IMG/VR virus record: IMGVR_UViG_3300008448_011250
Location: 22,600-86,599 of that record
Length of the DNA: 64,000 nt
Direction: 5' to 3' (one strand)
Source: a virus
Shown: piece after piece, positions 8,293 through 27,914 of the stretch
Layout: each line of letters opens with the position of its first letter
Position numbering within the stretch: position 1 is the stretch's first letter
Made by a program: the position numbers and the translations under genes
Notes under the pieces: generated by a model
The model's input: the letters and a program-made list of their open reading frames with translations, nothing else
The model's database searches: none
What the model was told of the DNA's origin: nothing

Positions 8293-8321
8293 TAATTTAT
8301 TCAAAAAAATTAACAATTAAC

Positions 8322-8350
8322 TTTGATTTATCCCATTAATTATCTATATT
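8322..8350 (+). promoter_or_regulatory. Class I promoter
   Basis: TTTGAT-17 nt-TATATT upstream of the SSB gene. Confidence 0.6.
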
Positions 8351-8396
8351 ATAATTAATATTTTATTTTATTAACCAATTAACAAAAGGAAGACTT

Positions 8397-9176: not shown

Positions 9177-9189
9177 GAAGGAGTTATAA

Positions 9190-11395: not shown

Positions 11396-11424
11396 TTTGA
11401 ATTTAACATTGTTTTTATTATAAT
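11396..11424 (+). promoter_or_regulatory. Class I promoter (leaderless)
   Basis: TTTGAA-17 nt-TATAAT; helicase ATG 6 nt downstream. Confidence 0.65.
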
Positions 11425-11430
11425 GGTTAT

Positions 11431-12786: not shown

Positions 12787-12790
12787 AAAC

Positions 12791-12799
12791 ATATTTATA
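12791..12799 (+). promoter_or_regulatory. Class II promoter motif
   Basis: ATATTTATA between the helicase and RNR genes. Confidence 0.5.
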
Positions 12800-12806
12800 T
12801 AAAATT

Positions 12807-12837
12807 AGGCACGGATGGAATACTCCGGCCTTTTTTT
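12807..12837 (+). terminator. Rho-independent terminator-like hairpin
   Basis: AGGC(A)CGGA...TCCGGCCT stem followed by a T run. Confidence 0.55.
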
Positions 12838-12880
12838 ATCTAAAAAAATTAAGTTAACAAACATTCAAAGGATTTATGCA

Positions 12881-14737
12881 ATGGAGATTTCAAATCAAAT
12901 TTTAAGTGAAATTACAGTGTACATGAAGTATGCTAAGTATGTTCCCGAACTCAATCGTCGAGAAACATGGGAAGAATTAGTTACAAGAAACAAAGAGATG
13001 CATCAGAAAAAATATCCCGCATTAGTGCAGGAAATTGAAACGGCGTATCAATATGTTTACAATAAGAAAATATTACCTTCAATGCGTAGTTTGCAATTTG
13101 GAGGAAAACCAATTGAAATTTCTCCGAACCGTATTTACAATTGTGCTTATTTGCCAATTGATGATTACAGAGCATTTGGTGAGGCAATGTTTCTACTTTT
13201 AGGCGGTACAGGTGTTGGATATTCAGTTCAAACACATCATGTAGAAAAATTACCAGAGATTCGCAAACCAAATCCTAAGAAAACACGAAGATTCTTGATT
13301 GCAGATTCAATTGAAGGTTGGGCAGATGCAGTTAAAGCTCTTGTTAAATCTTATTTCGAAGGTGGCTCAACGTTTAATTTTGATTTCTCTGATATTCGTC
13401 CAAAAGGAGCAAGATTAGTAACATCAGGAGGAAAAGCTCCAGGGCCACAACCACTTAAGGAATGTTTAATTAAATTAGCAGGAATATTAGATGCAAAAGA
13501 AGATGGCGACAAATTATCAGCGATTGAAGTGCACGATATGGTATGCCACGTTGCGGATGCGGTATTGGCAGGAGGTATTAGACGTGCGGCCCTTATTAGC
13601 TTGTTTAGTGCCGATGATGAAGAAATGATTGCATGTAAATCAGGCAATTGGTGGGAAACAAATCCACAAAGAGGTCGTGCTAACAATTCAGCAACATTGA
13701 TGCGTCACAAATTAACAAAAGAATTCTTTATGGATCTTTGGAAACGTGTTGAATTGTCAGGAGCAGGAGAACCAGGAATCTATTTAACTAACGATAAAGA
13801 TTGGGGAACTAACCCATGTTGCGAAATTGCACTACGTCCTTTCCAATTCTGTAATTTATGTGAAGTAAATGCATCAGATATTGAATCACAAGAAGATTTA
13901 GAAGCACGTGTTAAGGCAGCAGCATTTATCGGAACACTTCAAGCAGGTTACACTGATTTTCATTACCTTCGTCCAATTTGGAAACGCACAACTGAAAAAG
14001 ATGCTTTAATTGGAGTATCAATGACAGGAATCGGTTCTGGCACAGTATTGGGTTATGATATGAAAGCTGCGGCAAAAGCTGTTAAAGAAGAAAATGAAAG
14101 AGTTGCAAAACTTATTGGAATTAATAAATCAGCCCGAACTACAACGGTTAAGCCAGCTGGAACAACTTCATTAGCATTAGGAACATCATCAGGTATTCAC
14201 GCTTGGCACAATGATTACTATGTAAGAAGAATACGCGTTGGAAAGAATGAAGCAATTTATTCATACTTGGCAATTAATCACCCAGAGTTAGTTGAAGATG
14301 AATATTTCCGTCCACACGATACTGCAGTTATTTCTATTCCACAAAAGTCACCGGAAGGAGCTATTCTAAGAACAGAATCACCATTTGCTTTATTGGAACG
14401 AATTAAAAAAGTGCACTTAGAGTGGGTTAAACCGGGACATAGAAGCGGAAACAATACACACAATGTATCAGCAACAGTTTCGCTTAAAGCAGATGAATGG
14501 GAATTGGCAGGAGAATGGATGTGGACAAACAGAGATCATTATAATGGATTATCAGTTTTACCATATGATGGAGGAACTTACACTCAAGCACCATTTGAAG
14601 ATATTACTCAAGAACAATATGAATCAATGTTAAAATCATTAACGGATATTGATTTAAGTCAAGTTGTTGAATTAGATGATAACACTGACCTGTCAGGCGA
14701 ATTAGCTTGTGCAGGCGGAGCGTGCGAGATAAAGTAA
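12881..14737 (+). CDS. nrdJ: Class II (adenosylcobalamin-dependent) ribonucleotide reductase
   Basis: NCAY, GTGVG, GGIRRAA, GTNPCCEI, TTVKPAGT and C-terminal CAGGAC. No beta subunit nearby. Start moved to MEISNQ because the longer ORF start lies inside the hairpin. Confidence 0.88.
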   Translation: MEISNQILSEITVYMKYAKYVPELNRRETWEELVTRNKEMHQKKYPALVQEIETAYQYVYNKKILPSMRSLQFGGKPIEISPNRIYNCAYLPIDDYRAFGEAMFLLLGGTGVGYSVQTHHVEKLPEIRKPNPKKTRRFLIADSIEGWADAVKALVKSYFEGGSTFNFDFSDIRPKGARLVTSGGKAPGPQPLKECLIKLAGILDAKEDGDKLSAIEVHDMVCHVADAVLAGGIRRAALISLFSADDEEMIACKSGNWWETNPQRGRANNSATLMRHKLTKEFFMDLWKRVELSGAGEPGIYLTNDKDWGTNPCCEIALRPFQFCNLCEVNASDIESQEDLEARVKAAAFIGTLQAGYTDFHYLRPIWKRTTEKDALIGVSMTGIGSGTVLGYDMKAAAKAVKEENERVAKLIGINKSARTTTVKPAGTTSLALGTSSGIHAWHNDYYVRRIRVGKNEAIYSYLAINHPELVEDEYFRPHDTAVISIPQKSPEGAILRTESPFALLERIKKVHLEWVKPGHRSGNNTHNVSATVSLKADEWELAGEWMWTNRDHYNGLSVLPYDGGTYTQAPFEDITQEQYESMLKSLTDIDLSQVVELDDNTDLSGELACAGGACEIK

Positions 14738-14952
14738 TGATACATTCGGCATCAAAAGATTGGATACAACAACTGTATGTGAAGGAGTTTGGCAACAAGC
14801 TCCTTCCTACAGACTTTTACTATGAAAATGGGTATCGAGTAATGACTGAATCATATCACAAAAGAAGAGGGACATGTTGCGGAAATGGTTGTCGACATTG
14901 TCCGTATGAACCTGCACATAAAAAAGGCAATACGACTTTGAAATCCGAATAA
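14737..14952 (+). CDS. Small Cys-rich protein (DUF5522-like)
   Basis: HKRRGTCCGNGCRHCPY; TAATG coupling to RNR. Confidence 0.7.
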   Translation: MIHSASKDWIQQLYVKEFGNKLLPTDFYYENGYRVMTESYHKRRGTCCGNGCRHCPYEPAHKKGNTTLKSE

Positions 14953-14965
14953 ATTTTATTATATT
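14937..14965 (+). promoter_or_regulatory. Class I promoter
   Basis: TTTGAA-17 nt-TATATT upstream of folE. Confidence 0.6.
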
Positions 14966-14982
14966 AGAAATAAGATTAAGTT

Positions 14983-15684
14983 ATGACAAAAGAACAAAGA
15001 AAAAATTTAGAATTAGTTAAATCTGGTTTTGCTAACGGTATTTCAACGCAACTAGCAACTAAACAAGCAATGTTCGGCCCAGATGCTGAATTAACTCAAG
15101 AAGAAAAACAAGCAATTATTGATGATGCTGCATTTTATTATGGAGAATTTCTTCGTGCATTAGGTGTAGCTTGGGAACAAGATCCTAATTCAGACAATAC
15201 TCCACGCAGAGTTGCAAAGGCATACGTAAATGATTTATGGAAAGGTCGTTATGAGCCAATGTCTAATATTACTTCATTTCCAAGTGATGGTTATGATGGT
15301 ATTGTGTTTGAAGGCGGTATTCCATTAACATCAATGTGTAGTCATCACCACCAGACAATTGAAGGATTAGTTCATATTGCATATATTCCGGCAGAGAATG
15401 GTAATGTAGTAGGTTTAAGTAAATTGAATAGAGTTGTAGAACACTTTGGTAGAAGAGGTGCAATTCAAGAACAATTGACAGTAGCAATTCAACACGCAGT
15501 TGACGAACTAATTACTGACAATAAAGGAGTAGCAGTTATGATTGAAGCAACTCATAATTGTGTATCATGTAGAGGTGTTAAGCATCGTGGTGCTTCAATG
15601 AAGACAGCAAAATTATCTGGAGCATTCTTGGAAGATGGCAATGCGAGATCAGAATTTTATCAATTCGTAAAAGGTTATAATTAA
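14983..15684 (+). CDS. folE: GTP cyclohydrolase I
   Basis: TPRRVAK, SMCSHH, GLSKLNRVV, IQEQLT, HNCVSCRGV. Confidence 0.95.
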   Translation: MTKEQRKNLELVKSGFANGISTQLATKQAMFGPDAELTQEEKQAIIDDAAFYYGEFLRALGVAWEQDPNSDNTPRRVAKAYVNDLWKGRYEPMSNITSFPSDGYDGIVFEGGIPLTSMCSHHHQTIEGLVHIAYIPAENGNVVGLSKLNRVVEHFGRRGAIQEQLTVAIQHAVDELITDNKGVAVMIEATHNCVSCRGVKHRGASMKTAKLSGAFLEDGNARSEFYQFVKGYN

Positions 15685-16286
15685 TGGCTGATTGGGACGC
15701 ATTGAATGCAGAATTAGATACTGCATTAGATTCAATGACTCATGAAGATTGGTTACAATGGAAAAATATGTCTATTATAGATTGGGAATTACACCAAAAA
15801 CTTATGCAAAAGAAAAGTAAAATGAAAAAGTTTAAGTCAACAAAATTATTTGATGGTTATTCTGCTTGTTTTAGACAATGGCGAGCAGAAGATACGCATT
15901 GCAAATTCTTACATGGGTATGCAGTATCATTTCGAGTATGGTTCGAAGGTGATTTAGATCATCGCAATTGGGTATTTGATTTCGGAGGAATGAAACGTGC
16001 AAAAACGCAAATTGCAGGTATGTCTCCGAAAGATTACTTTGCGTGGCTATTAGATCACACTACGATTGTATCTGTCGATGATCCATACTTAAAGACATTC
16101 GAACAAATGCATGAAGATGGTATTATCCAATTGCGAATATTAGCAAACGTTGGTTGCGAAAAGTTTGCAGAACATTTATACAATGTAATCAATATATTCT
16201 TATTACAAGAAACCGAAGGTAGAGTTAAGGCAACAAAAGTAGAAGTATATGAACACGAAAGAAATTCGGCAAGTTATGGAGAATAA
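15684..16286 (+). CDS. queD: 6-carboxy-5,6,7,8-tetrahydropterin synthase
   Basis: HCKFLHGY, WVFDFGG, LDHT, GCEKFAE, YEHERNSA. Either a 46-aa N-terminal extension or an alternative start at 15822. Confidence 0.85.
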   Translation: MADWDALNAELDTALDSMTHEDWLQWKNMSIIDWELHQKLMQKKSKMKKFKSTKLFDGYSACFRQWRAEDTHCKFLHGYAVSFRVWFEGDLDHRNWVFDFGGMKRAKTQIAGMSPKDYFAWLLDHTTIVSVDDPYLKTFEQMHEDGIIQLRILANVGCEKFAEHLYNVINIFLLQETEGRVKATKVEVYEHERNSASYGE

Positions 16287-16395
16287 AAAGAGAAATATAA
16301 TAAATATTGATTTAAGTGGTTGTAAAAACATGAAGGAATGTGCTAAAGCAATTGATATGATCTTATCTGGTAAAATTAAAATTACAATACAATAG
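16276..16395 (+). CDS. Small hypothetical protein (39 aa, not in ORF track)
   Basis: MENKKRNIINIDLSGCKNMKECAKAIDMILSGKIKITIQ fills the gap between queD and 16401. Confidence 0.4.
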   Translation: MENKKRNIINIDLSGCKNMKECAKAIDMILSGKIKITIQ

Positions 16396-16400
16396 ACAAA

Positions 16401-16781
16401 ATGAAAAATAATGAAGAGATATATGTATCACTTTATGAGTATTTAGGTAAAGGTTCTGGTGGTACTAATATTGGTCGAGAAGTAACGGCAGAAGCTGTTA
16501 AACAAGGCGTTGATATCAAATGGAGAACTCTACCTAAAGAAGCACAACGTCCGGAATATACTCAAGTACAAATATATCCAATATCATTTTTGGATTCATA
16601 TTTTGCTAATGATCCGACTGTAGGTAATGTTGAAATAGATCGAACTCCATTAGTACGTCGTTCCGAATTGCTTAAATTGCAGCAACGACTACAAGAACTT
16701 GAGGCTAAATTTGACGCCGTAATTAAAAAATTAGATGTACCAACAACCAAATTAGAAGATGACTATGACCTCCCATTCTAA
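16401..16781 (+). CDS. Hypothetical protein with coiled coil and SSB-like DDYDLPF tail
   Basis: 126 aa; C-terminal heptads LLKLQQRLQELEAKF; ends EDDYDLPF. Confidence 0.55.
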   Translation: MKNNEEIYVSLYEYLGKGSGGTNIGREVTAEAVKQGVDIKWRTLPKEAQRPEYTQVQIYPISFLDSYFANDPTVGNVEIDRTPLVRRSELLKLQQRLQELEAKFDAVIKKLDVPTTKLEDDYDLPF

Positions 16782-17547
16782 AAGAATTACAGATTACAAC
16801 AAAACATTGCCCATAGTAGAATTGTATAGATGTGTACAATCAGAAGGCTCTCGCTTTGGCAGACCTACTATTGCAGTTAGAACTACGGGTTGCACTCATC
16901 GATGCTATTTTGGCGAAGGTGGTTGGTGCGATTCTTGGTATACTAGTATTCACCCGGAGAAAGGCACATTTACTTTCAATGACATCATAAAGATATATGA
17001 CGAAAATCCGCATATCAAAGAAATGATGTTAACTGGAGGTTCTCCAACAATGCATCCAGCATTGGTAAATGAATTGACACACTTTGCACATGAAAGAGAC
17101 ATTCTTATCACTATTGAAACTGAAGGCTCACATTTTATTGCTACTGATTATCCTATCGGCTTATTATCTATTAGCCCTAAGTTTAATAATAGTGTACCCG
17201 TTGTGGGCGTTGCTACGCCGCAGGGCACTATCACGGATTCAAAGATGGTATCCCAACATAACAAGTTTAGATTGAATTACACAGCAATCAATGAAATGAT
17301 ATCATATCATACAGATTATCATTATAAGCCAGTATGGGATGGTACAGAAGAAAATTTGCGAGAAATTGAAGAAGCTCGCATATTCCTAGATATTCCAAAG
17401 GAAAAAACATACATTATGCCAGCAGGAGATACCAGAGAAGAATTAATTAAAATGTATCCCGTAGTATTTGAAATGTGTGCCGAACATGGATATAACATGA
17501 CAGGTAGAGACCATATTATTGCATATGATACTAAAAGAGGCGTGTAA
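16759..17547 (+). CDS. queE: 7-carboxy-7-deazaguanine synthase (radical SAM)
   Basis: VQSEG, VRTTGCTHRC...WCDS, LTGGSP, TIETEG, SISPK; clustered with folE and queD. Confidence 0.88.
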   Translation: MTMTSHSKRITDYNKTLPIVELYRCVQSEGSRFGRPTIAVRTTGCTHRCYFGEGGWCDSWYTSIHPEKGTFTFNDIIKIYDENPHIKEMMLTGGSPTMHPALVNELTHFAHERDILITIETEGSHFIATDYPIGLLSISPKFNNSVPVVGVATPQGTITDSKMVSQHNKFRLNYTAINEMISYHTDYHYKPVWDGTEENLREIEEARIFLDIPKEKTYIMPAGDTREELIKMYPVVFEMCAEHGYNMTGRDHIIAYDTKRGV

Positions 17548-17573
17548 ACTAACAACTTAAAATAAAGGAAAAA

Positions 17574-17780
17574 ATGGAAGAACAAATAAAACCATTAGAA
17601 GAACAAAATCTTAAGATTAGAATTCAAATTTTAGATGTTGAAGATAATGTACTTATATCATCGGTAATAAGTCAAATGATGGTACATAATTTAAACGTTT
17701 ATCATGGCGTCAGTGGGGTAGATCAAGCATACAATTTATTATTAGATGAATTATCCAAAAAACAGTCTATAGAAAAATGA
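17574..17780 (+). CDS. Hypothetical protein
   Basis: 68 aa, AAGGA RBS. Confidence 0.5.
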   Translation: MEEQIKPLEEQNLKIRIQILDVEDNVLISSVISQMMVHNLNVYHGVSGVDQAYNLLLDELSKKQSIEK

Positions 17781-17836
17781 ATTGGACAATAACAACAACG
17801 TTTGGAGACGTTAAAATAATTTACGAGATAAAATGA
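17777..17836 (+). CDS. 19-aa translational-coupling mini-ORF
   Basis: MNWTITTTFGDVKIIYEIK overlaps both neighbours by ATGA. Confidence 0.45.
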   Translation: MNWTITTTFGDVKIIYEIK

Positions 17837-18084
17837 AAAAGATATTATACTTCACAGCAGAATGGTGCGGCCCATGTACATATGTAAAACCGCAGATGCA
17901 AGAAATTGCTAATCAAGTTCCTATTACATTTATTGATGTCGACACTAATTCAGCTACCGCATCGAAATACAATGTAAAAAATATACCATGTGTCATTTTA
18001 ATTGACCAATCCGGTACTGCTCTAGGTAAACTAGTAGGAACAAATGTAACAAAACAATCAGTTATTAATTTATATAATCGTTAA
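17833..18084 (+). CDS. trxA: Thioredoxin
   Basis: FTAEWCGPC active site; cis-Pro loop NIPC. Confidence 0.9.
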   Translation: MKKILYFTAEWCGPCTYVKPQMQEIANQVPITFIDVDTNSATASKYNVKNIPCVILIDQSGTALGKLVGTNVTKQSVINLYNR

Positions 18085-18095
18085 AAGGAAAAGTT

Positions 18096-18395
18096 ATGGA
18101 ATGGAAACCATTAGGTGATCAAGTATTGATCAAAGTAGAGAAAACTACCGAAAAAACAAAAAGTGGAATTATTTTGGTAGATAGAGACATGAACTTTAAA
18201 GCAGGAACAATTGTTGCTGTTGGAGACGGATTGTTTACGCAAACGGGAGATAGAATTCCAATGACAGTTAAACCCGGAGATACTGTATACGTATACAAAT
18301 CAAATTTAGGTGAAAACAAAAGTATAGTTTTAGATGATGAAGATTATATGTTGCTTCGAGAATCTGAAATTGGACTCGTAAACGCAGCACAATGA
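18096..18395 (+). CDS. groES: Co-chaperonin GroES
   Basis: KPLGDQVLI, KTKSGIIL, GTIVAVGDG, VKPGDTV, LRESEI. Confidence 0.93.
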   Translation: MEWKPLGDQVLIKVEKTTEKTKSGIILVDRDMNFKAGTIVAVGDGLFTQTGDRIPMTVKPGDTVYVYKSNLGENKSIVLDDEDYMLLRESEIGLVNAAQ

Positions 18396-18625
18396 TAGAA
18401 GCATTAGGGTGGGCTAGTACCGCATTGGTATTAGTAGGTTACATTTTAAATGCACGACAATTTACACGTTATGCAATGTATGCCTGGATCATTGGCGATA
18501 TTGGTTGGATTACATATGATTTTTTCATTGATAATTTCAGCCATTTGGTATTAAGCTTAGTTATTATTATTATAAATTTATACGGAATATGGAACTTATT
18601 ATCAGCAAAAAAGAAATCCAATTAA
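18392..18625 (+). CDS. Small membrane protein (about 3 TM)
   Basis: 77 aa, hydrophobic; IINLYGIWN resembles PnuC/YgjV-like half-transporters. Confidence 0.55.
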   Translation: MIEALGWASTALVLVGYILNARQFTRYAMYAWIIGDIGWITYDFFIDNFSHLVLSLVIIIINLYGIWNLLSAKKKSN

Positions 18626-19095
18626 GAGTAAAACAATTGGCATTAGACATTGCAAATGACCATATAAATACAGGTAATGCATTGCCACCAGTAATGATTT
18701 GCATTTTGAACGGTGCGTACATGTTTTATACGGATTTGCTCCGTAATATGCCGGTAGATGTACAATCTGATTTTGTTAGAATGAAATCATATCAAGGTCA
18801 AGATAATTCCGGCGGGATTGAAATCCTTAAGGGTTTAGAAGTAGATCTTAAAGGTCGCAATGTTTATATTGTAGATGATATTTGTGATACGGGTACAACT
18901 ATATTAGAAGCATTGTTTATGGTTAATAGTCACTTGCCCGCTCAAGTTAAAGTTGTTACATTAACAAGAAGAGGTGGCGGTGTTGATTTAACAAATTTTT
19001 GTGGTTTTGTTTTAGGCGATGAATGGATTGCTGGCTATGGGCTTGACAACAACGGGGTAGGAAGAAATTTAGAGGATTTATACAAGGTTAATTAA
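18589..19095 (+). CDS. hpt: Hypoxanthine-guanine phosphoribosyltransferase-like
   Basis: ICILNGA, KSY, IVDDICDTGTT PRPP motif, AGYGLD. Confidence 0.88.
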   Translation: MELIISKKEIQLRVKQLALDIANDHINTGNALPPVMICILNGAYMFYTDLLRNMPVDVQSDFVRMKSYQGQDNSGGIEILKGLEVDLKGRNVYIVDDICDTGTTILEALFMVNSHLPAQVKVVTLTRRGGGVDLTNFCGFVLGDEWIAGYGLDNNGVGRNLEDLYKVN

Positions 19096-21611
19096 TGTTT
19101 CAAGGAATAGGTTACGACAAAAAAAATAACATCATGCACGTATGGGATGATGAATTAGGACACCAAAAGTTTTCTTTTCAACCATATGCATATTTGCCAG
19201 ATGATAATGGTGCACACGTTTCATTAGATGGAACGCGACTATCACAAGTCCCAGGCAATCACAAAGACAATAGAACTGCATATGAATCAGATCTAAACGA
19301 AGAAATGCGCACATTGATTGATTTATATTATGAATCAGATGAGCCGTCCAAAGGACATAGAGATTTCTTTTTTGATATTGAGTCAGAACGTGATGAAAAT
19401 GGTTATTCAACACCGCAAGATGCACGTTTGCGAATTACATCCATTGCATATTATGATAAAGCAGCAAATGACCGCAAAGTATTGGTATTAGATGAAGAAC
19501 ATCGAGTTACAACAAAAGGTTTTAAAGAAGCTGAATATGAAGTAGAGATATTTCGCACAGAAGCGGATATGTTGACTAGATTCATAAATATTTTTGCTGC
19601 AGCTAAACCTACCGTAATTACAGGTTGGAACATTGACAATTATGACGTTCCATATCTTGTTAATCGTATTAAAAAAGTATTAGGTGCACAAGCAGTTAAA
19701 AAGCTTTCTCCTGCAGGTATTGTAGATTGGAATAAGAATCGAGAAAGATACAAAATCTTTGGAGTATCTAGTTTAGATTACCTGACACTATATAAAAAGT
19801 TTACGTATACAGAATTACCAAATTATCGATTAGACACTGTAGCAAAAACAGAATTAGGTAAGGGTAAAGTTGAATATGAAGGAGACTTGAATCAATTGTT
19901 TGCAACTGATATTCGCAAATTTGTTGAATATAACATGGTTGACGTTAATTTGGTTTATGAGTTAGATGAAAAGACACAGTTATTGAATCTTGCTCGAACC
20001 ATATGTCATAAAGGCCATGTTCCATATGAAGATGTATATTATGCATCTAAATACCTGGATGGTGCTGCAATAGTTGATTTGAAACGCAATGGATTAGTTG
20101 CACCTAACAAACAATTCCGATTTGTTGAAGAAGAAACGGAAGCTGATGCATTAGCAGGAGCATATGTAAAAGATCCGATACCCGGCTTATACAAATGGAT
20201 ATATGACTTAGATTTAACGTCATTATATCCTAGCATCATCATGAGTTTAAATATTTCTCCAGAAACTAAAGTAGGAGTAATACAAAATTGGAATGAAGAA
20301 TGTTTATTGAAACCAGAAGCACAACAAGTCACATTTACCAATGGCACGTATGCTCAAAATGTTAAAACATGGCTACAAGACAATGCATATACCGTTGCAA
20401 GTAATGGTGCCGTTTATAGAACAGATATCCGGGGATTCTTACCAACGATTCTAGAAAAATGGTTTGATGAACGTGTTGAATATAAAGACAAACGCGATGA
20501 ATATGCAGTCGGAACGGAAGAATATAAGTTTTATGATGCATTGCAGTTAACACAAAAAGTATTGCTCAATTCATTTTATGGAGTATTAGGACTTAAGACA
20601 TTTCGATTCCACGATTTAGATAATGCAGGTGCTATCACAGCAACAGGTCAAAGTGTAATTAAGTTTTCCGCAAAAGTTATTAATAATCACTATGCAAAAG
20701 AAGTAGGACAAGACCATTTCATTAATGCAACCAATGGCAAAGCAGAATTTGCATTCTATACGGATACAGATTCAACCTTTGTTAGTTCATTGCCTTTAAT
20801 TGCAAAACGATTTCCTGGATTTGATGAAACAGATGAAAAGTTTATGATTGAACAAACCAATGCAATTGCATCAGAAGTTCAACGTCTTGTAAATCAAATG
20901 TATGACCGATATTCGGAAGTATTTCACAATACCAAAACGCATCGATTCCAAATTAAACAAGAATATGTTGCAAAATCAGGTTTATGGATTGCTAAGAAGC
21001 GATATGCACAATGGGTTATATTCAAAGAGGGTAAACCTACGGATAAATTAGATATCAAAGGATTAGATGTTGTTAGATCTAGTTTCCCGGAAGATTTCAA
21101 AAAGATAATGAAAGAAACACTTTGGAATATTCTTAAGGAAAAGAATAAAACAGAAACAACCGATATGATTCACACGTTTAAATCTGGATTAAAGAATTCG
21201 CCAGTACTTAATGTGATGAAGAATTCCGGGGTAAAGGAAATATCAAAATATACCAAGAAAAGAAAACCATTTACAGGATATTTACTCGGAACACCAGCAC
21301 ACGTTAAGTCAGCAATTAATTTCAATGATTTGTTAACGTCTAATGACATTCGAGACATTGAACCTATAACAGATGGCGAAAAGGTTAAATGGGCATACTT
21401 ATCAGATAATCCTTTTGGTTTTGACACAATGGCACTTCGAGGTTACCAAGATCCAAAAGTTATCGTGGACTTTGTAGAGCAATACATAGATCGCAATAAA
21501 ATCTTTGAAAAGGAATTGAAAAATAAACTGGATGATTTCTATGCAGCAATGAATTGGGGTGCATTCCCGGAAAATAATTCAGTTGCCAAGTTCTTTTCAT
21601 TTGGAAAATAA
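19095..21611 (+). CDS. Family B DNA polymerase
   Basis: Exo FDIE, GWNIDNYD, YNMVD; Pol DLTSLYPS, KVLLNSFYG, YTDTDS, KKRY. Confidence 0.96.
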   Translation: MFQGIGYDKKNNIMHVWDDELGHQKFSFQPYAYLPDDNGAHVSLDGTRLSQVPGNHKDNRTAYESDLNEEMRTLIDLYYESDEPSKGHRDFFFDIESERDENGYSTPQDARLRITSIAYYDKAANDRKVLVLDEEHRVTTKGFKEAEYEVEIFRTEADMLTRFINIFAAAKPTVITGWNIDNYDVPYLVNRIKKVLGAQAVKKLSPAGIVDWNKNRERYKIFGVSSLDYLTLYKKFTYTELPNYRLDTVAKTELGKGKVEYEGDLNQLFATDIRKFVEYNMVDVNLVYELDEKTQLLNLARTICHKGHVPYEDVYYASKYLDGAAIVDLKRNGLVAPNKQFRFVEEETEADALAGAYVKDPIPGLYKWIYDLDLTSLYPSIIMSLNISPETKVGVIQNWNEECLLKPEAQQVTFTNGTYAQNVKTWLQDNAYTVASNGAVYRTDIRGFLPTILEKWFDERVEYKDKRDEYAVGTEEYKFYDALQLTQKVLLNSFYGVLGLKTFRFHDLDNAGAITATGQSVIKFSAKVINNHYAKEVGQDHFINATNGKAEFAFYTDTDSTFVSSLPLIAKRFPGFDETDEKFMIEQTNAIASEVQRLVNQMYDRYSEVFHNTKTHRFQIKQEYVAKSGLWIAKKRYAQWVIFKEGKPTDKLDIKGLDVVRSSFPEDFKKIMKETLWNILKEKNKTETTDMIHTFKSGLKNSPVLNVMKNSGVKEISKYTKKRKPFTGYLLGTPAHVKSAINFNDLLTSNDIRDIEPITDGEKVKWAYLSDNPFGFDTMALRGYQDPKVIVDFVEQYIDRNKIFEKELKNKLDDFYAAMNWGAFPENNSVAKFFSFGK

Positions 21612-21629
21612 GAATTAATTCATTATATT
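21601..21629 (+). promoter_or_regulatory. Class I promoter (leaderless) heading the modification/clamp operon
   Basis: TTGGAA-17 nt-TATATT; ATG 5 nt downstream. Confidence 0.65.
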
Positions 21630-21634
21630 ATAGT

Positions 21635-22087
21635 ATGATTGGTTATAAAAGTATATGGTATGGTAAAGAAGTTGAAGGACGCTTTACGGATATCGAAACA
21701 TGTTTCATTGCAGACTTTACGCCATTAGTTTATGGTACGCAACGAATGAAACCTATGCCGCACATTTATATTTGTTCTCCGGCTACTGAACAATTGGTTA
21801 ATGACAGCAAAAGCAAAGATTTCAATTGGCAGAATGTTTTTAACATGATATCAGACACGCAATTTGTTTCAATTGAAGCAACACCTGGTATGTTAGAACA
21901 TATTCCTCCGATGATTAGAATTCGAGCGCATATCTTATTAATGTTAGATTGCAAAGATGCTGGATTGTTAAAGCAAACGGATAGTATCAAAGTAGTTTAT
22001 GGAGATTATAAATTGTATTGCACAACCGTTCATAATATGCAATCAGTAAACCCAGATGATTATAAATTCGACCGCCATGAAGTATAG
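21635..22087 (+). CDS. Hypothetical protein, first gene of the modification operon
   Basis: 150 aa; WYGKEVEGRF...DDYKFD. Confidence 0.6.
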   Translation: MIGYKSIWYGKEVEGRFTDIETCFIADFTPLVYGTQRMKPMPHIYICSPATEQLVNDSKSKDFNWQNVFNMISDTQFVSIEATPGMLEHIPPMIRIRAHILLMLDCKDAGLLKQTDSIKVVYGDYKLYCTTVHNMQSVNPDDYKFDRHEV

Positions 22088-22418
22088 TGTAGTAGTAACA
22101 TTTAGCATCGAAGGATTTCATAATTGGCCTGATGCTAAAGATGTTTTTCCAGAAGTAGCATTCTTATCAGATAGACATCGTCATATGTTTGGATTTCGTT
22201 GTTATGCACACGTAACACACACTGATAGAGATGAAGAATTTATTCTAATGCAACGAAGATTGAAACAACAGTTGCGAACTAACTTCGGTGGTAACATATT
22301 AGAGTTTGGTTCAATGTCGTGTGAGATGATTGGAGAATGGATATTAGAAAACAATAAAAATCTTTACAAAGTAGAAGTTTGGGAAGATTGGGAAAATGGT
22401 GCAATCATTGAAAGATAG
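22077..22418 (+). CDS. Second QueD-like T-fold protein
   Basis: EGFHNW, HRH, EEF, SCEMI, VEVWEDWENGA: His triad and T-fold Glu motifs, but no QueD CxxLHGH. Start moved to MKYSVV. Confidence 0.6.
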   Translation: MKYSVVVTFSIEGFHNWPDAKDVFPEVAFLSDRHRHMFGFRCYAHVTHTDRDEEFILMQRRLKQQLRTNFGGNILEFGSMSCEMIGEWILENNKNLYKVEVWEDWENGAIIER

Positions 22419-22419
22419 T

Positions 22420-23454
22420 ATGAAAATATTTTTAGTAGATTTAGAATCTGTTCCAACTCGTTATACTTGTGAATGGAAATGGCACGTGCCGCAATTGCTT
22501 AGAGATAATGGCTTCGATGTAGAAGTTATCGAAGGTGACTTAGATATTCCAGAAGCAGTAACACCAGGTGCCTTTTTGAATTTCGGTGGCACTAATATGT
22601 ATAAGGCTACACAAACACATCGTTTAGCAGAATTATTTACACGAGGTGATATTAAAGCAGGAGATCATATCATATTCACTGATGCTTGGCATCCAGGTAT
22701 TATCAATGTTAAGTACATGAGTGAACTCCTAAATATTCCTGTTGTAACGCACGGACTTTGGCACGCGGGTTCATATGACCCAAATGACTTTTTAGGTCGT
22801 CTCGTTGGAGATAAACCATGGATTCGTCACGCTGAACAAGCCTTTATTGGAGCATTTGACCATAATTGGTTAGCAACTGCAGCACATTTTAATTTAATGT
22901 GTAAAACATATGACATATTTCATAATCCAACTTTTGATAGAACGGGTTGGCCTATGGAATATACAAAAACGATGATTGCTCCTAAAATGTGGGCAAAGAA
23001 AGAAAATATCATTGTATTTCCGCATCGCATTGCACCAGAAAAGCGTTTAGATTTATTTCAGCGCTTAGCAAAGCATCCGGATTTGAAACATTATCAATTT
23101 TGCGTTGCAATGGAAATGAATTTAAGCAAAACAGAATATCATGAATTGCTTCAACGTGCAAGATTTGCAGTGTCGTTTGCAGATCAAGAAACTTTAGGCA
23201 TTTCTATGTATGAATCAGCTTGTGCTGGAGCTTGTCCTATAGTTCCAAATCGTTTATCATATACGGAAATGTATGATCCGATGTTTAAACGTGCTGATTC
23301 GGTAGCAGAGGCAGCAAAAGCAATACTAGAATATGAACAGCAAGAAATGTCCGAAGCAATTGGGCAATTAGTTGCAAAATTACATAATAACTTTTTTTCA
23401 GCAAAACAATTAATCAATTATTTAAAAGGATACGAAAAAGATGAGCGAAAATAA
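22420..23454 (+). CDS. GT-B (family 4-like) glycosyltransferase
   Basis: VFPHRIAPEKR and QETLGISMYESACAGACPIVP (ExxGxxxxE); WHAG. Confidence 0.8.
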   Translation: MKIFLVDLESVPTRYTCEWKWHVPQLLRDNGFDVEVIEGDLDIPEAVTPGAFLNFGGTNMYKATQTHRLAELFTRGDIKAGDHIIFTDAWHPGIINVKYMSELLNIPVVTHGLWHAGSYDPNDFLGRLVGDKPWIRHAEQAFIGAFDHNWLATAAHFNLMCKTYDIFHNPTFDRTGWPMEYTKTMIAPKMWAKKENIIVFPHRIAPEKRLDLFQRLAKHPDLKHYQFCVAMEMNLSKTEYHELLQRARFAVSFADQETLGISMYESACAGACPIVPNRLSYTEMYDPMFKRADSVAEAAKAILEYEQQEMSEAIGQLVAKLHNNFFSAKQLINYLKGYEKDERK

Positions 23455-24700
23455 AAGATTCATATACTTTCCATCATTGTCCGCAGGTTCCATGGTATCT
23501 GCTTTCAAAAAGGATATGAAATTTGAAGATGGTAACCCTGTCAAATTTTTTGATTCGAGATATCCGGCAGATTGGAGACATCCATATTTCCTAGTCACTG
23601 CAGGACATCATTACAAAAAAATAGACTTTAGAAAGCAAATGGGCTTAGAAGATGATGTATTAGTATTTGGAGATTCAGGAGGTTATCAGATTGCAACTGG
23701 AGCTTTGCCATATAGCAATGAATTACGTGAAAAGATATTTCATTGGTTAGAAGCAAATAGTGATGTTGCAGCAAATTTAGATATTCCACCTAAGACAAAG
23801 TATAAGAATCAATTTGCTCTATGTGCTGATATTAGTTTTGATAACTTTGCTTGGTTTGAAAAACATCAATCAGGTAAGACAAAATTCTTGAACATGTTGC
23901 AAGGATCAAATTCCGAAGAGTATACATGGTGGTATCACAAATTTAAGCATTTTGATTTCCAAGGTTGGGCAATCGGAGGTCCGCAGAAGTTAGTAGACTT
24001 TATGTTTGCGGTTTCATTGATGCTTAAGAATAGAGAGTTTGAAAATAAACGATTAGAATATGTCCATTTATTAGGTATTTCTAAAATATCAGATTTCTTC
24101 ATATTAGCAACCTTGCAAAAGTTAATGAATCAACATACAGGTAATAGAATTTATATTACAACGGATTCATCTTCTCCAGGTCAATATCCGGTATTCGGAA
24201 CATACCTGCATTCAACGAATTACAAGTCACAATCATTTTCTGAATTGTATTTTCCTAAGAATGCAGAATACCGCAGAAAGACACATATTAAACAAGGTAA
24301 GACGGGTGAAGTTCCAATTGATTTAACTCAACACGTTCCTTGTTCATTAGGTTGTCCGGCTTGTAAAGATTTTACCTATGATTTGCTAGGAGGTAAGACT
24401 CCAGAAGGATTAGATAGATATTCTCAAGAAGCTATGCCTAGAATGGTTGTTCACAATACGCATTTGTATGTACAAGCAGCAAATGAAATAAATCAATTAG
24501 TTGATAGTCACGTTGAATTGCTAGAAACGTTGATACCAAGAGACTTATATGATGTAATCCTTTCATTACACGAAATGTTTGCAGATCCAGATGGCGCACC
24601 GCAAGTATATGAAAAATACATCAAAACATATAAAAAATTCGGCGGAAGTAGTATTTCCACAACCGATGCAGAAAACTTTAATAAATTCTTTAAATTTTAA
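23441..24700 (+). CDS. dpdA: DpdA-like guanine transglycosylase (TGT fold)
   Basis: GDSGGYQ, LDIPP, LQG, AIGG, VHLLG, TDSSS, CSLGCPAC...HN zinc site; linked to folE/queD/queE. Confidence 0.8.
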   Translation: MSENKRFIYFPSLSAGSMVSAFKKDMKFEDGNPVKFFDSRYPADWRHPYFLVTAGHHYKKIDFRKQMGLEDDVLVFGDSGGYQIATGALPYSNELREKIFHWLEANSDVAANLDIPPKTKYKNQFALCADISFDNFAWFEKHQSGKTKFLNMLQGSNSEEYTWWYHKFKHFDFQGWAIGGPQKLVDFMFAVSLMLKNREFENKRLEYVHLLGISKISDFFILATLQKLMNQHTGNRIYITTDSSSPGQYPVFGTYLHSTNYKSQSFSELYFPKNAEYRRKTHIKQGKTGEVPIDLTQHVPCSLGCPACKDFTYDLLGGKTPEGLDRYSQEAMPRMVVHNTHLYVQAANEINQLVDSHVELLETLIPRDLYDVILSLHEMFADPDGAPQVYEKYIKTYKKFGGSSISTTDAENFNKFFKF

Positions 24701-24712
24701 TCAGGATAAACA

Positions 24713-25423
24713 ATGGAAAAAAGCAAGTTACAATCATTTATTAATCGTTATTATTTAGCAGGAAATTGCGAAGCGGTTAAATTGAATCAAAACGAAGAAG
24801 GTGTTGGTTGTGAATTGATCGATATGGATCAAACAATTGTAGGTAAAATACAATGGAAAACAACACCATTCATGAAAGGCGAATTAGGTATCAATCATAC
24901 CGGTGCCTTAAACAAAATGCTCGGAGCATTGGGTGAAAATATCAATATCAATGTAAAAGATGCAGCAGGTAAGAATTATGCAATGGAAATTGCTGAAGGT
25001 AGCACTAAGGCAACATTTATGTTGGCAGACACGACAGTTATTCCAGCAGTTCCTTCAATCAATGCAGAACCTGATTATGTTATTGAAATTCCTGTCAATG
25101 AAGAATTTATTAGCAAGTTCATTAAAGCCAAGAATGCATTACCTGATGCCAAAAACTTTGCAGTGCAAGTAAAAGATGGTGTTATTAAATTTATTATCAA
25201 TTACACAACAGTTAATGCAGATAACATTACATTCGAGGTAGGAAATACAACTGCTGCCGATATGGATCCGGTTTGTTTCTCTGCGGATAAATTGAAAGAA
25301 GTACTTGTAGCAAATCGTGGAGACTCTGGTCAATTGAAAGTATCTCCAGATGGATTATCTAGAATTAATTTTACGGGTTCTGATTTTGAATCAACTTATT
25401 GGTTAGTAATGTTACAAAACTAA
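24713..25423 (+). CDS. DNA sliding clamp (gp45/PCNA-like)
   Basis: 236 aa, two-domain alpha/beta pattern ending STYWLV; adjacent to clamp-loader genes. Confidence 0.7.
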   Translation: MEKSKLQSFINRYYLAGNCEAVKLNQNEEGVGCELIDMDQTIVGKIQWKTTPFMKGELGINHTGALNKMLGALGENININVKDAAGKNYAMEIAEGSTKATFMLADTTVIPAVPSINAEPDYVIEIPVNEEFISKFIKAKNALPDAKNFAVQVKDGVIKFIINYTTVNADNITFEVGNTTAADMDPVCFSADKLKEVLVANRGDSGQLKVSPDGLSRINFTGSDFESTYWLVMLQN

Positions 25424-25431
25424 GGAGTCGA

Positions 25432-25860
25432 ATGCAAGTAAAAATAAAACGACTACATAAAGATGCAACGATCCCGGCATATTCAAAGCCGGGAGATGCA
25501 GGAATGGATTTAACGGCAACATCTGCAAGGAAAGATGATTATGGTAATGTTGTTTATGGAACAGGCCTGGCAATTGAAATACCGGAAGGTCACGTTGGAT
25601 TGATTTTTCCTAGATCATCAAATAGCAAAACAGATCTATATCTAACAAATCATGTAGGTGTTATTGATTCTGGGTATCGAGGAGAAATTATGTTTAAGTT
25701 TCGCCCAATTGATGGATTACTTAATGCTAAAGTATATCAAATTGGTGATAGAATAGGACAATTAATGATATTACCATATCCTGCTGTTGAATTAATAGAG
25801 GCAGCAGAATTATCTTCATCAGAACGTGGAGATGGCGGATTTGGATCAACGGGTAAATAA
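25432..25860 (+). CDS. dut: Trimeric dUTPase
   Basis: AGMDL, GTG, PRSS, GVIDSGYRGE, RIGQL, RGDGGFGSTG; AAGGAG RBS. Confidence 0.95.
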   Translation: MQVKIKRLHKDATIPAYSKPGDAGMDLTATSARKDDYGNVVYGTGLAIEIPEGHVGLIFPRSSNSKTDLYLTNHVGVIDSGYRGEIMFKFRPIDGLLNAKVYQIGDRIGQLMILPYPAVELIEAAELSSSERGDGGFGSTGK

Positions 25861-25865
25861 AAAAT

Positions 25866-26792
25866 ATGTTTGGACAACAAGAAAATACACTTTGGGTTGA
25901 ATCATTTCGACCTGACACATTAGAAGGATATATAGGCAATGAGCATATTATCGAGAAAGTTAAAATTTTTATTGATAATGGCGATGTTCCGCATCTCTTA
26001 TTTTATGGATCGGCTGGAACAGGCAAAACGACGTTGGCGAAAATAATTGCCGGATCGGTAGATGCAGATTTAATGTATATTAATGCATCAGATGAAAACT
26101 CAGTAGATGCGGTTAGAGATAAGATTAAGCGTTATGCATCAACAGTAGGATTTCGCAGATGGAAAATTATCATCTTAGATGAGGCAGATTATTTAACACC
26201 TAATGCTCAAGCTGCTCTTCGTAACTTAATGGAGACATATAGCAAAACAACACGCTTTATTTTAACATGTAACTATGTTGAAAAGATTATTGATCCGATT
26301 CAATCACGTTGTCAGACATTTGCTATTACACCACCAAATAAAAAAGAAGTAGCACAACGTTTAGTTACAGTACTTGATGAAAAAGGCGTAAGCTATGACA
26401 TCAAAGATATTGCTGCAATTATCAATGCATCATATCCAGATATTCGTCGAGCAATCAATGCAGCACAAGCATCAGTAGTTAATGGCAAATTGCAATTGGA
26501 TAAAGCTTCTGCAATTCAAGCTAATTATATGACTGAAATACTTGAAATGCTCAAAAATGCAAAAGACAAAAAAGCAACATTCACAAAAATTCGTCAATGT
26601 ATTGCAGATAGCAAAGTTAGAGACTTTACTCCTTTGTATACATTTTTATATGACAATTTAGATGAATTTGCACATGGACATATTGCACCTTGCATTTTGA
26701 TTATAGCAGAATCGCAATTTAAAGATGCTAGTGTAGTAGATAAAGAAATTAACATAATGGCAATGTTTGTCAATTTATTAGGAGAAATATGA
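25866..26792 (+). CDS. Clamp loader AAA+ subunit (RFC-small/gp44-like)
   Basis: WVESFRP, GSAGTGKTT, INASD, LDEAD, QAALR, SRC. Confidence 0.93.
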   Translation: MFGQQENTLWVESFRPDTLEGYIGNEHIIEKVKIFIDNGDVPHLLFYGSAGTGKTTLAKIIAGSVDADLMYINASDENSVDAVRDKIKRYASTVGFRRWKIIILDEADYLTPNAQAALRNLMETYSKTTRFILTCNYVEKIIDPIQSRCQTFAITPPNKKEVAQRLVTVLDEKGVSYDIKDIAAIINASYPDIRRAINAAQASVVNGKLQLDKASAIQANYMTEILEMLKNAKDKKATFTKIRQCIADSKVRDFTPLYTFLYDNLDEFAHGHIAPCILIIAESQFKDASVVDKEINIMAMFVNLLGEI

Positions 26793-27013
26793 GTAAATTA
26801 ACCGCACCAGGAATTAAGCCAACAGATATGCAACCAATTATCTGTAAAGAATGTGACGGAATGTATTTTCGTCAAGTAATGGCAATTAACAAAGTATCAA
26901 AACTATTAACGGGTTCTGATAAAGACACAATGGTTCCAATACCAGTATTTAGATGTGATGATTGCGGAGCTATTCCAGAAGAGTTTCAACCAATTAAAAC
27001 GAAACTTAAATAA
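26789..27013 (+). CDS. Zn-ribbon protein
   Basis: CKECDG...CDDCG. Confidence 0.65.
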   Translation: MSKLTAPGIKPTDMQPIICKECDGMYFRQVMAINKVSKLLTGSDKDTMVPIPVFRCDDCGAIPEEFQPIKTKLK

Positions 27014-27228
27014 TGTCAGTACAATATCACAAAAGCACGGTTAGCATTGTATTTAAAACATCGAATAGAAGCAATGCTAAAACTAAAATGAAAACATTTC
27101 GCAATAAAACAATAGATGACATTTTAGATGCAAAACGTATTATCGGAGTTCCAGATAATGCGGTGATAATTGAATTAGGAATAGGTAAACAATTGGAACA
27201 ACAATATCGTAACAAATATAAACTATAA
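27013..27228 (+). CDS. Hypothetical protein
   Basis: 71 aa, basic; TAATG coupling. Confidence 0.55.
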   Translation: MSVQYHKSTVSIVFKTSNRSNAKTKMKTFRNKTIDDILDAKRIIGVPDNAVIIELGIGKQLEQQYRNKYKL

Positions 27229-27231
27229 TAA

Positions 27232-27681
27232 ATGGCAGAAGAAAAAAAGGGTGCAACAATTTTTGATTTCATTAATGGCGTAACTGACAAGAAAAAAGAA
27301 TGGTCTAAATGGTCTGAAACGGATCAAAAGAAATTTACTCCATTTATTGTTAATCGTTGGTTGTCAATGCGTATGGAATTAACAGAAATTGTTAATGAGT
27401 TTCAAACCTATACAATTGGCTTATTGCGTCCACAAGAAACGTATAGATTATACTATGAATTTCTTCCTGCAACTAAAGGATTTGCAAAATACATAAAAGG
27501 CAAATCAGAAGATAAGTATGAAAAGGATTTAGTTGCACAAATTGCCGAACATTATCAAGTATCCAAATCAGAAGCTACTGACTATATCGATTTAATGGAT
27601 AAGACTCAATGTGATAGAATTTTATCAATGTATGGTTATAGTGAAGGAGAAAAAAAGAAATTATTGAAAGGAATAAAATGA
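27232..27681 (+). CDS. Clamp loader small subunit (gp62-like)
   Basis: FDFIN, PFIVNRWLS, HYQVSKSEATDY pattern; clamp-loader context. Confidence 0.7.
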   Translation: MAEEKKGATIFDFINGVTDKKKEWSKWSETDQKKFTPFIVNRWLSMRMELTEIVNEFQTYTIGLLRPQETYRLYYEFLPATKGFAKYIKGKSEDKYEKDLVAQIAEHYQVSKSEATDYIDLMDKTQCDRILSMYGYSEGEKKKLLKGIK

Positions 27682-27914
27682 CACAAACTGATGAAACTCG
27701 AATCATACCAGTACTGGATACAATTGTAGATTCAATTATAGATCGATTCATACAACGTTCCGTAATCGGAAAAGCAAAATATGGAACTGATATGGATCGC
27801 ACAGACCTTTCACTTAAAGAATGGTTACAACATAGCATTGAAGAAAAATTAGATGATATTCTTTATATGCAACGTGCATTAAAGGAGATAGAAAAGTTGG
27901 AATCTGATAAATAA
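27678..27914 (+). CDS. Small all-alpha protein, possible MazG-like NTP pyrophosphohydrolase
   Basis: GKAKYG...WLQHSIEEKLDDILY (EExxD acidic helix). Confidence 0.4.
   Translation: MTQTDETRIIPVLDTIVDSIIDRFIQRSVIGKAKYGTDMDRTDLSLKEWLQHSIEEKLDDILYMQRALKEIEKLESDK

Follow-up and report, generated by a model that had tools for sequence, protein, structure and literature searches.

The closest described relative of the system analysed here is that of Cellulophaga phage phiST, a phage without QueC in whose DNA all G is replaced by 2'-deoxy-7-deazaguanosine (dDG; Cui, Hutinet et al., NAR 2023, PMC10516641). One of its proteins, DpdL, is defined by a QueD motif changed from CxxxHGH to LxxxHRHxF and is, by homology, the proposed decarboxylase of 7-carboxy-7-deazaguanine (CDG), heterologous expression having failed (PMC10516641). 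Here we analyse a stretch of viral DNA of 64,000 nucleotides (the window), which corresponds to bases 22600-86599 of the IMG/VR virus record IMGVR_UViG_3300008448_011250, a linear contig of 86.6 kb that is 46% complete by CheckV; its GC content is ~34% and the + strand holds all long open reading frames. The window resembles phiST in lacking QueC, in having the FolE/QueD/QueE/DpdL set with the same DpdL signature and the same QueD variant (CxxxHGY), and in the position of the module beside replication genes. It differs in that phiST has a short DpdA3 (259 aa, without a DSGG motif), MazG and a small ATPase; no glycosyltransferase, phosphoribosyltransferase or member of the hyp150 family (named after a 150-aa protein of the window) was found in the phiST stretch examined. 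In the window, a glycosyltransferase gene lies between dpdL and the gene of a long DpdA-like transglycosylase, and this arrangement is the subject of the present work.

Linkage of the glycosyltransferase gene to dpdL and dpdA

The order hyp150-DpdL-glycosyltransferase-DpdA is kept in 50/50 near relatives with enough sequence. More distant loci were collected by a search seeded with the ACP17 branch of the glycosyltransferase family (an alignment of 7 sequences). Relatives of the enzyme are encoded in at least 568 IMG/VR loci, of which 80 (37-44% identity) were kept as a diverse set. Of these 80 loci, 77 encode DpdL, at a median gap of 241 nt from the glycosyltransferase gene; DpdA and FolE were found in 66 each and QueE in 53. 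Where DpdL is missing (three loci), the contig ends within 1.3 kb of the glycosyltransferase gene. No QueC was found in five large contigs of the set. The co-occurrence test that an earlier note on this DNA had proposed for the block of hypothetical protein, T-fold protein, glycosyltransferase and DpdA thus gave a positive answer, for the whole block in near relatives and for the DpdL-glycosyltransferase pair in diverse loci.

Among 50,697 records of cultured phages, the glycosyltransferase family occurs in seven lineages, and in six of them (ACP17, the PA5oct group, Phosso, BUDD/X1, BCSR5 and cyanophage BUCT-ZZ01) DpdL is encoded at most 4 kb away. These phages are like the window in combining a glycosyltransferase of the family (25-41% identity; gp124 in ACP17 and gp167 in PA5oct) with DpdL and a long DSGG-type DpdA, with FolE and QueE encoded close by. 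A purine phosphoribosyltransferase is shared by BUCT-ZZ01 and PA5oct. They are unlike it in gene order and in the branch to which their DpdA belongs (DpdA2-like in ACP17), and no member of the hyp150 family was found in their loci. In PA5oct, the DNA polymerase gene beside the module (locus positions 4000-5682) is split by a homing-endonuclease gene according to the record annotation.

Three loci of DpdL phages without the glycosyltransferase were examined (phiST group, D479 and MA9V-3) and all of them carry a short DpdA3 instead; the glycosyltransferase therefore goes with the long DpdA and not with DpdL as such. Since the linkage is conserved in hundreds of loci, in several cultured phages and in bacterial islands (see below), the glycosyltransferase almost certainly belongs to the module. 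This built-in enzyme is a real and widespread feature that we found in no paper; the text of PMC10516641 contains neither 'glycosyl' nor 'phosphoribosyl'.

Base synthesis without QueC

The window proteins FolE, QueE, QueD and DpdL are, respectively, 66, 63, 53 and 39% identical to those of phiST, and FolE, QueD and QueE are closest to those of Bacteroidota phages (phiST and MA9V-3). In QueD, the motif reads C-K-F-L-H-G-Y, that is CxxxHGY rather than CxxxHGH, as it does in the QueD of phiST, ACP17 and BUCT-ZZ01. The second T-fold protein (likely start at 22077), which the earlier note had suspected of being DpdL, can be placed as such: its motif LSDRHRHMF fits the published LxxxHRHxF signature, and it aligns with phiST CGPG_00067 (39% identity over 115 aa, E = 1.6e-22) and with the DpdL of Vibrio phage D479 (43%). 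The signature is kept in 7 of 8 aligned DpdL proteins, PA5oct reading HFHYF.

On the contig of the window, DpdL is encoded together with FolE, QueD, QueE and DpdA and without QueC. No QueC (PF06508) was found in the whole 86.6 kb or in five large relatives, two of them complete, with direct terminal repeats (159.6 and 158.3 kb) and a DpdA that is 94 and 93% identical, respectively, to that of the window; QueF (PF14489) is likewise absent from the contig and from the two complete relatives, and the accompanying searches of contig and relatives found no canonical Pfam tRNA-guanine transglycosylase (TGT). These large relatives keep the gene order of the window. The lack of QueC and QueF, at first claimed for the 64 kb, thus extends well beyond them.

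The earlier note had combined the QueC-less pathway and the glycosyltransferase into a candidate novel DNA base; the pathway was recognized correctly, but the FolE/QueD/QueE/DpdL/DpdA system has already been published for the dDG of phiST (PMC10516641), and only the glycosyltransferase is new. Because the genes and signatures match those of phiST, whose DNA carries dDG, the base-synthesis half can be taken, as judged by homology, for an already known system, and the base made is most likely 7-deazaguanine (DG). In Xanthomonas phage BUDD, a 164-aa 'PAPS reductase family protein' (6374-6868), which belongs to the same broad ATP-pyrophosphatase superfamily as QueC, is encoded between FolE and a block of glycosyltransferase, DpdA, DpdL and QueE.

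The DpdA-like transglycosylase

The 419-aa protein encoded downstream of the glycosyltransferase has by itself no Pfam, NCBIfam, PADLOC or PDB sequence match, and the profile of its clade has none either; its placement rests on the Pfam matches of relatives (PF01702 is carried by relatives ~73% identical to it) and on a fold search. With its AlphaFold2 model (predicted local distance difference test, pLDDT, 79), the top 50 Foldseek matches listed were all TGT or ArcTGT, and the best structural match was human QTRT1 (7nq4_A; Z = 22.3, root-mean-square deviation 4.0 over 310 residues). In an alignment of 91 sequences that includes the ACP17 gp123 family, D78-S-G-G-x-Q83, D114, H209-x-L-G212 and D242-S243 are invariant, and the set D78/D114/D242 would be equivalent to Asp102, Asp156 and Asp280 of TGT. 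Residues C301, C305, C308 and H338, which are invariant within the window clade and lie in a region of pLDDT 55-70 that was not aligned across the wider family, may form a zinc site.

The subfamily comparison covered DpdA2 and DpdA3. Identity as a DpdA3 was rejected, as there was no significant BLASTP alignment with the phiST enzyme (CGPG_00065; best E = 0.22) and the hhalign probability was 7.5%. Against the DpdA2 of Vibrio phage nt-1, the hhalign probability of the window clade was 7.2%, in the DSGG stretch only. Weak similarity was found to ACP17 gp123 (24% over 178 aa, E = 5e-8) and to proteins of Phosso and PA5oct, and gp123 is itself similar to the founding DpdA2 of nt-1 (36% over 250 aa, E = 8e-38); for this reason we place the window protein in a long DSGG-type group that appears related to DpdA2 only through ACP17. 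The earlier description of the protein as a DpdA-like transglycosylase holds, given the TGT fold, the DSGGxQ motif and the second invariant Asp; as to the subfamily, which had been left to be settled, it is not DpdA3 and its link to DpdA2 is indirect. It very probably puts a deazaguanine into DNA, for which the replication-gene context, the dDG of phiST and the restriction resistance of PA5oct DNA are indirect evidence.

The glycosyltransferase

The glycosyltransferase model is of high quality (pLDDT 94.6) and matches sucrose-phosphate synthase (SPS; 6kih, Z = 26.8), BshA (6n1x, 25.9) and MshA (3c4q, 24.3); the nearest viral model is that of an ACP17 protein (TM 0.91). The sequence scores 25.7 bits with PF00534, for a cut-off of 26.4, and many relatives at 80-94% identity carry that domain. 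Clustering of the family at 50% identity gives 1140 clusters, of which 245 match at E ≤ 1e-30. In 120 members, Q73, H123, E147, R211, G268 and E273 are invariant, and K216 and E265 are conserved in at least 90%. The Arg/Lys pair (R211, K216) and the EX7E motif (E265, E273) are what we take to be the GT4 donor-binding set; judging from alignment and model, the enzyme keeps these residues intact and looks catalytic. The N-terminal (acceptor) domain is also strongly conserved in these 120 proteins, with many aromatic and acidic residues, which suggests a single defined acceptor.

Hydroxymethyl-pyrimidine was considered as an alternative acceptor and rejected: the sole thymidylate-synthase homologue of the window is an ordinary ThyA, so that such a base would not be available. 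This protein (61056-62183, 375 aa) is longer than usual and is matched by ThyA models in two or three stretches, which indicates an insertion. A distant homologue of the glycosyltransferase (26% identity) is found in Xanthomonas phage PhiXhv-12 (4753-7987), where it adjoins GlmS and a BshB-like GlcNAc deacetylase and where deazaguanine genes were not found nearby; the neighbours hint at UDP-GlcNAc as the donor in this branch, which may have its role in another modification.

Recurrent partners: a phosphoribosyltransferase and hyp150

A purine phosphoribosyltransferase recurs in the module as two unrelated types, HGPRT in the window clade and an XGPRT-like protein elsewhere. The HGPRT-like gene is present in 24/28 near relatives with enough flanking sequence; its product scores 126.4 bits with TIGR01203, for a cut-off of 150, and has the phosphoribosyl pyrophosphate (PRPP)-binding motif VYIVDDICDTGTT. 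In HGPRTs, the Asp of this motif (DDICDTG) acts on N7 of the purine, so that its retention fits a true purine (guanine) substrate. The XGPRT-like gene occurs in 49/80 diverse loci, in BUCT-ZZ01 and, as a weak match, in PA5oct (gp163).

The second partner, hyp150, is present in 50/50 near relatives. By iterated search with hidden Markov models, it is a divergent member of a family of ~175 aa encoded directly upstream of DpdL in 57 diverse loci. Neither Pfam, nor PDB profile search, nor the protein Atlas assigned this family.

Bacterial islands

When prokaryotes were scanned with one genome for each species, 19 bacterial loci with the glycosyltransferase were obtained, in 17 of which DpdA or DpdL adjoins it; in 7 of the 19, a Vut_1/YhhQ-like transporter is encoded just upstream of it. 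Two arrangements can be distinguished. In Magnetospirillum, the order is glycosyltransferase-DpdL-DpdA-PTPS and two proteins without assignment, and blocks of this type also occur in loci L173, L175, L177, L178, L181 and L183. In Magnetospirillum aberrantis (L179, 4244-15365), the block follows HEPN_LA2681, a histidine kinase with a response regulator and a CoiA_nuc-like protein of 519 aa, and looks like a modification system in a defence island.

In Rhizobiales and Rhodobacterales, the order is DpdA, a transporter of the Vut_1 family, which we take to be the family of the preQ0 transporter YhhQ, and the glycosyltransferase (L187 from Ochrobactrum sp., 1370-15820; also L174, L176, L182, L185, L186 and L188). 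FolE, QueD, QueE and DpdL were not found within 10 kb of these islands. The Ochrobactrum island is flanked by Mrr_cat, GmrSD, two integrases and an 853-aa protein without assignment, the family of which recurs in the Magnetospirillum loci. As such islands keep DpdA, transporter and glycosyltransferase without the synthesis genes, the glycosyltransferase is kept together with DpdA and a source of free deazapurine base even if the cluster itself does not make that base.

One further locus (L184) is a 3 kb contig binned in a metagenome-assembled genome of Crocinitomicaceae and carries hyp150-DpdL-glycosyltransferase-DpdA of the window's own clade. Together with synthesis genes closest to those of Bacteroidota phages, it hints at freshwater Flavobacteriales as host of the window phage; that L184 is a mis-binned viral contig is equally possible.

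Gene layout of the window

The genes of the module and those around them are listed in Table 1.

Table 1. Genes of the deazaguanine module and adjoining genes in the window
Feature	Coordinates	Strand	Evidence or remark
Class II ribonucleotide reductase	12815-14737	+	just before folE
FolE, GTP cyclohydrolase I	14983-15684	+	PF01227, 151.6 bits
QueD, CPH4 synthase	15684-16286	+	PF01242, 51.5 bits; phrog_2389, 1.5e-35
126-aa protein between queD and queE, function unassigned	16401-16781	+	no family match
QueE, radical-SAM CDG synthase	16759-17547	+	phrog_2076, 1.9e-48; TIGR03365, 54.5 bits, under its cut-off
Thioredoxin	17833-18084	+	
GroES	18096-18395	+	Cpn10, 72.7 bits
HGPRT-like purine phosphoribosyltransferase	18589-19095	+	PF00156, 70 bits; TIGR01203, 126.4 bits
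Family-B DNA polymerase	19095-21611	+	phrog_262, 3.9e-184; inside module, not a pathway member
hyp150, 150-aa protein, function unassigned	21635-22087	+	upstream of dpdL
DpdL, second T-fold protein, 120 aa	22056-22418, likely start 22077	+	phrog_17812, 9e-25; motif
GT4-type retaining GT-B glycosyltransferase, 352 aa	22396-23454, likely start 22420	+	fold, motifs
Long DpdA-like TGT-superfamily protein, 419 aa	23441-24700	+	fold, motifs
Sliding clamp	24713-25423	+	NF002222, 4e-5; replication context only
dUTPase	25399-25860	+	PF00692, 73 bits; replication context only
Clamp-loader subunits	25866-26792, 27232-27681	+	AAA/Gp44_lid; PF16790, 34 bits; replication context only

Successive overlaps of 11-32, 0-23 and 14 nt join the four genes of 21635-24700, in keeping with a single unit of transcription and translation. 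With the region as query, Megablast gave no match in phages, and PADLOC matched no protein of the module. The 126-aa protein between queD and queE is present in 16/18 near relatives with enough flanking sequence, and no homologue was found outside the phage clade of the window.

This layout agrees with the earlier note for the genes folE, queD, queE, hypothetical protein, T-fold protein, glycosyltransferase, TGT-like protein, clamp and clamp loader, all found on the + strand, and for the overlapping or abutting genes of the second block. That list was accurate as far as it went, yet it omitted the thioredoxin, GroES, HGPRT-like and polymerase genes between queE and the second block. The glycosyltransferase is not literally 'fused' to the pathway, being encoded by a separate, overlapping gene. 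The promoter proposed at 21601 could not be upheld: it is a 9-of-12 match to a sigma-70 promoter, of which the region has 65 where 71 are expected by chance, and it thus gives no evidence for a separate operon.

Besides GroES, the phage encodes a full-length GroEL (58977-60587; TIGR02348, 782 bits). About a dozen + strand genes of glycan chemistry occupy 32847-42592; they include genes for three GT2 glycosyltransferases, an FkbM methyltransferase, an SDR, a hexapeptide acetyltransferase, DUF6492 and a PIG-L/LmbE-type deacetylase with a weak match to BshB1.

Proposed pathway and its alternatives

In the pathway that we propose, FolE, QueD and QueE would convert GTP to CDG, and DpdL would remove the carboxyl group to give DG, as has been proposed for phiST. 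The TGT-fold DpdA would then, after replication, exchange guanine in phage DNA for DG. This exchange of near-isosteric bases would be reversible; we infer that the HGPRT-like enzyme takes up the released guanine and so pulls it forward, the salvaged guanine refeeding the GTP pool and hence FolE. The GT4 glycosyltransferase, with hyp150, would use a nucleoside diphosphate sugar on the deazaguanine, most likely after its insertion into DNA, possibly on the free base before it. The product would be a sugar-bearing 7-deazaguanine that resists restriction and can no longer be exchanged back.

As a whole, the reading as a DpdL-type, QueC-less modification of DNA with 7-deazaguanine to which a sugar-transfer step has been added seems to us evenly balanced between right and wrong. 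That the final base in DNA carries a sugar is a plausible prediction, which we rate at or just under that level. The more general proposal is tentative and falls a little short of an even chance: phages of many lineages and some alphaproteobacterial islands would make glycosylated 7-deazaguanine in DNA, the GT4 enzyme locking the reversible exchange by DpdA and a phosphoribosyltransferase (in phages) or a YhhQ-like transporter (in bacteria) managing the pool of free base. Of the corresponding claim in the earlier note, a deazaguanine-insertion module with its own glycosyltransferase, the membership of the enzyme in the module is supported by conserved linkage, and the sugar on the base stays an inference. 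That the note knew of no glycosylated deazaguanine as a described DNA base agrees with the literature searched, in which we found no description of one in phage DNA.

Several points weigh against a sugar on the base: (i) DG has no side-chain hydroxyl or amine, so that a sugar would need N2, O6 or a ring carbon, and we know of no retaining GT4 enzyme that glycosylates any of these positions; (ii) the closest solved structures (SPS, BshA, MshA, LmbT and a pterin glucosyltransferase) all have small-molecule acceptors, and none of the top 50 Foldseek or VIA matches listed is a T4 DNA glucosyltransferase; (iii) the glycosyltransferase is mildly acidic (pI 6.1; family median 5.7), with no hint of DNA binding, although the DpdA family is no more basic and isoelectric points do not separate DNA-binding from small-molecule enzymes here; (iv) phiST reaches full replacement by dDG without any glycosyltransferase, which is therefore not needed for insertion (PMC10516641); and (v) the decarboxylation of CDG by DpdL is itself a proposed activity, and the dpdL + dpdA pair of phiST failed in E. 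coli (PMC10516641). The same study reports that E. coli expressing dpdL + dpdA of ACP17, but not the glycosyltransferase, formed no dDG, and its authors suggest that other enzymes may be required (PMC10516641). The missing glycosyltransferase may explain this failure, which is however weak evidence for its role because the phiST pair failed too.

Some of these points favour an alternative in which phage DNA carries unglycosylated dDG, as that of phiST does, or dCDG. The substrate of the glycosyltransferase would then be a small pathway molecule, such as a pterin whose side chain is a diol or a precursor that is transiently glycosylated; or else the enzyme would be a partner of the long DpdA. 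The GT4 enzymes that match best, among them a tetrahydrobiopterin glucosyltransferase (Z = 21.6-21.8), have small-molecule acceptors, the chemistry of FolE and QueD passes through pterins, DG offers no obvious acceptor group and phiST makes dDG without such an enzyme. However, the islands of Rhizobiales and Rhodobacterales combine the glycosyltransferase with DpdA and a YhhQ-like transporter but have no synthesis genes within 10 kb, so that the enzyme can do without pterin intermediates from its own cluster; a purely structural role is also disfavoured by the fully conserved donor-binding residues. We consider this alternative unlikely, yet by no means remote.

A nucleotide-level route as in tubercidin is improbable. 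CDG or DG would be joined to PRPP by the phosphoribosyltransferase, reduced by the class II ribonucleotide reductase and incorporated by the polymerase, with DpdA and the glycosyltransferase in secondary roles. The recurrence of a PF00156 phosphoribosyltransferase as two unrelated types would fit this, as would the ribonucleotide reductase, thioredoxin and polymerase genes that adjoin the module and the precedent of the QueC-less tubercidin pathway, which uses CDG, a phosphoribosyltransferase and a decarboxylase (bioRxiv 10.64898/2026.04.15.718813). Yet every lineage has retained a DpdA, for which a route acting before replication would have no use, the ACP17 locus has no phosphoribosyltransferase and the bacterial islands have a transporter in its place. 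The Asp of DDICDTG retained by the HGPRT-like enzyme of the window, with the N7 role given above, also fits guanine as substrate.

Modification of tRNA is very improbable as the purpose of the module. In that case, the base would be placed in tRNA by the TGT-like enzyme, and the product of the glycosyltransferase would be a queuosine-like nucleoside with a sugar, comparable to animal manQ and galQ; the fold of the TGT-like enzyme is indeed closest to that of tRNA-guanine transglycosylases, and glycosylated 7-deazaguanosines exist in tRNA (PMC12518689). Against this, the same base-synthesis genes yield DNA with dDG in phiST, the window has no tRNA genes, and the module sits among replication genes and its bacterial copies among restriction genes. 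Moreover, PA5oct DNA itself resists five restriction enzymes that have G in their sites, which also speaks in favour of DNA as the probable final target in the glycosyltransferase-carrying phages. Equally slight is the chance that the glycosyltransferase serves an unrelated task, such as glycosylation of the virion or host envelope, and is placed here by coincidence: a separate glycan gene cluster does lie at 32.8-42.6 kb of the window and the distant homologue of PhiXhv-12 has GlmS and a BshB-like deacetylase, and no deazaguanine genes, as its neighbours, but linkage to DpdL or DpdA in 77/80 diverse viral loci, 6/7 cultured lineages and 17/19 bacterial loci, on unrelated genome backbones, argues otherwise.

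Significance and comparison with known systems

New here are the phiST-like base-synthesis genes in the window clade, the hyp150 family and the bacterial islands of DpdA, transporter and glycosyltransferase. To our knowledge, all eight known 7-deazaguanine DNA bases have small C7 substituents or none, and none bears a sugar; all DNA glycosylation that we know of is on hydroxymethyl-pyrimidines. If glycosylation of DG in DNA holds true, no sugar-bearing purine analogue would have been met in a genome before; the product would be a new class of DNA base, with consequences for restriction, CRISPR and type IV defence. It would also imply new enzyme chemistry, since DG has no ordinary acceptor group. 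PA5oct, a therapeutic candidate, is sensed by END nucleases, and the presence of the module in this and other cultured phages makes the prediction directly testable.

The proposal has partial parallels in four known systems. In the glucosylation of hydroxymethylcytosine by T4, as proposed here, a phage GT-B enzyme adds sugar to a modified DNA base after replication and restriction is escaped. The T4 enzymes act on the hydroxymethyl group of a pyrimidine, whereas the window enzyme is of GT4 type and its base would be a purine analogue without a hydroxyl; the T4 alpha- and beta-glucosyltransferases belong, as we take it, to GT72 and GT63, families other than GT4.

In animal tRNA, manQ and galQ are formed by QTMAN and QTGAL (PMC12518689), which, like the proposed reaction, add a sugar to a 7-deazaguanine nucleoside after base exchange by a TGT. 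They differ in that the substrate is RNA and the sugar is placed on the cyclopentenediol of queuosine, which the window pathway cannot make; our searches found no sequence or structural link between QTMAN and the window glycosyltransferase. Huimycin and dapiramicin are glycosylated 7-deazapurine natural products, and the huimycin enzyme HuiG uses UDP-GlcNAc (PMC7439116, bioRxiv 10.64898/2026.04.15.718813). By reaction, huimycin is like the proposal in that a free 7-deazaguanine-type base is the sugar acceptor, but both compounds are small-molecule antibiotics made by actinomycetes from preQ0, without a DNA insertion enzyme. Thus manQ/galQ and huimycin show that glycosylation of deazaguanine is possible, in neither case in DNA.

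The bacterial Dpd restriction-modification system (DpdA, DpdB, DpdC and further proteins; PMC10164549) differs from the module in using preQ0 and ADG, in needing the DpdB ATPase and in having no glycosyltransferase. It is like the module in that a TGT-family enzyme puts a 7-deazaguanine into DNA, and the bacterial copies of the module likewise lie in defence-island contexts.

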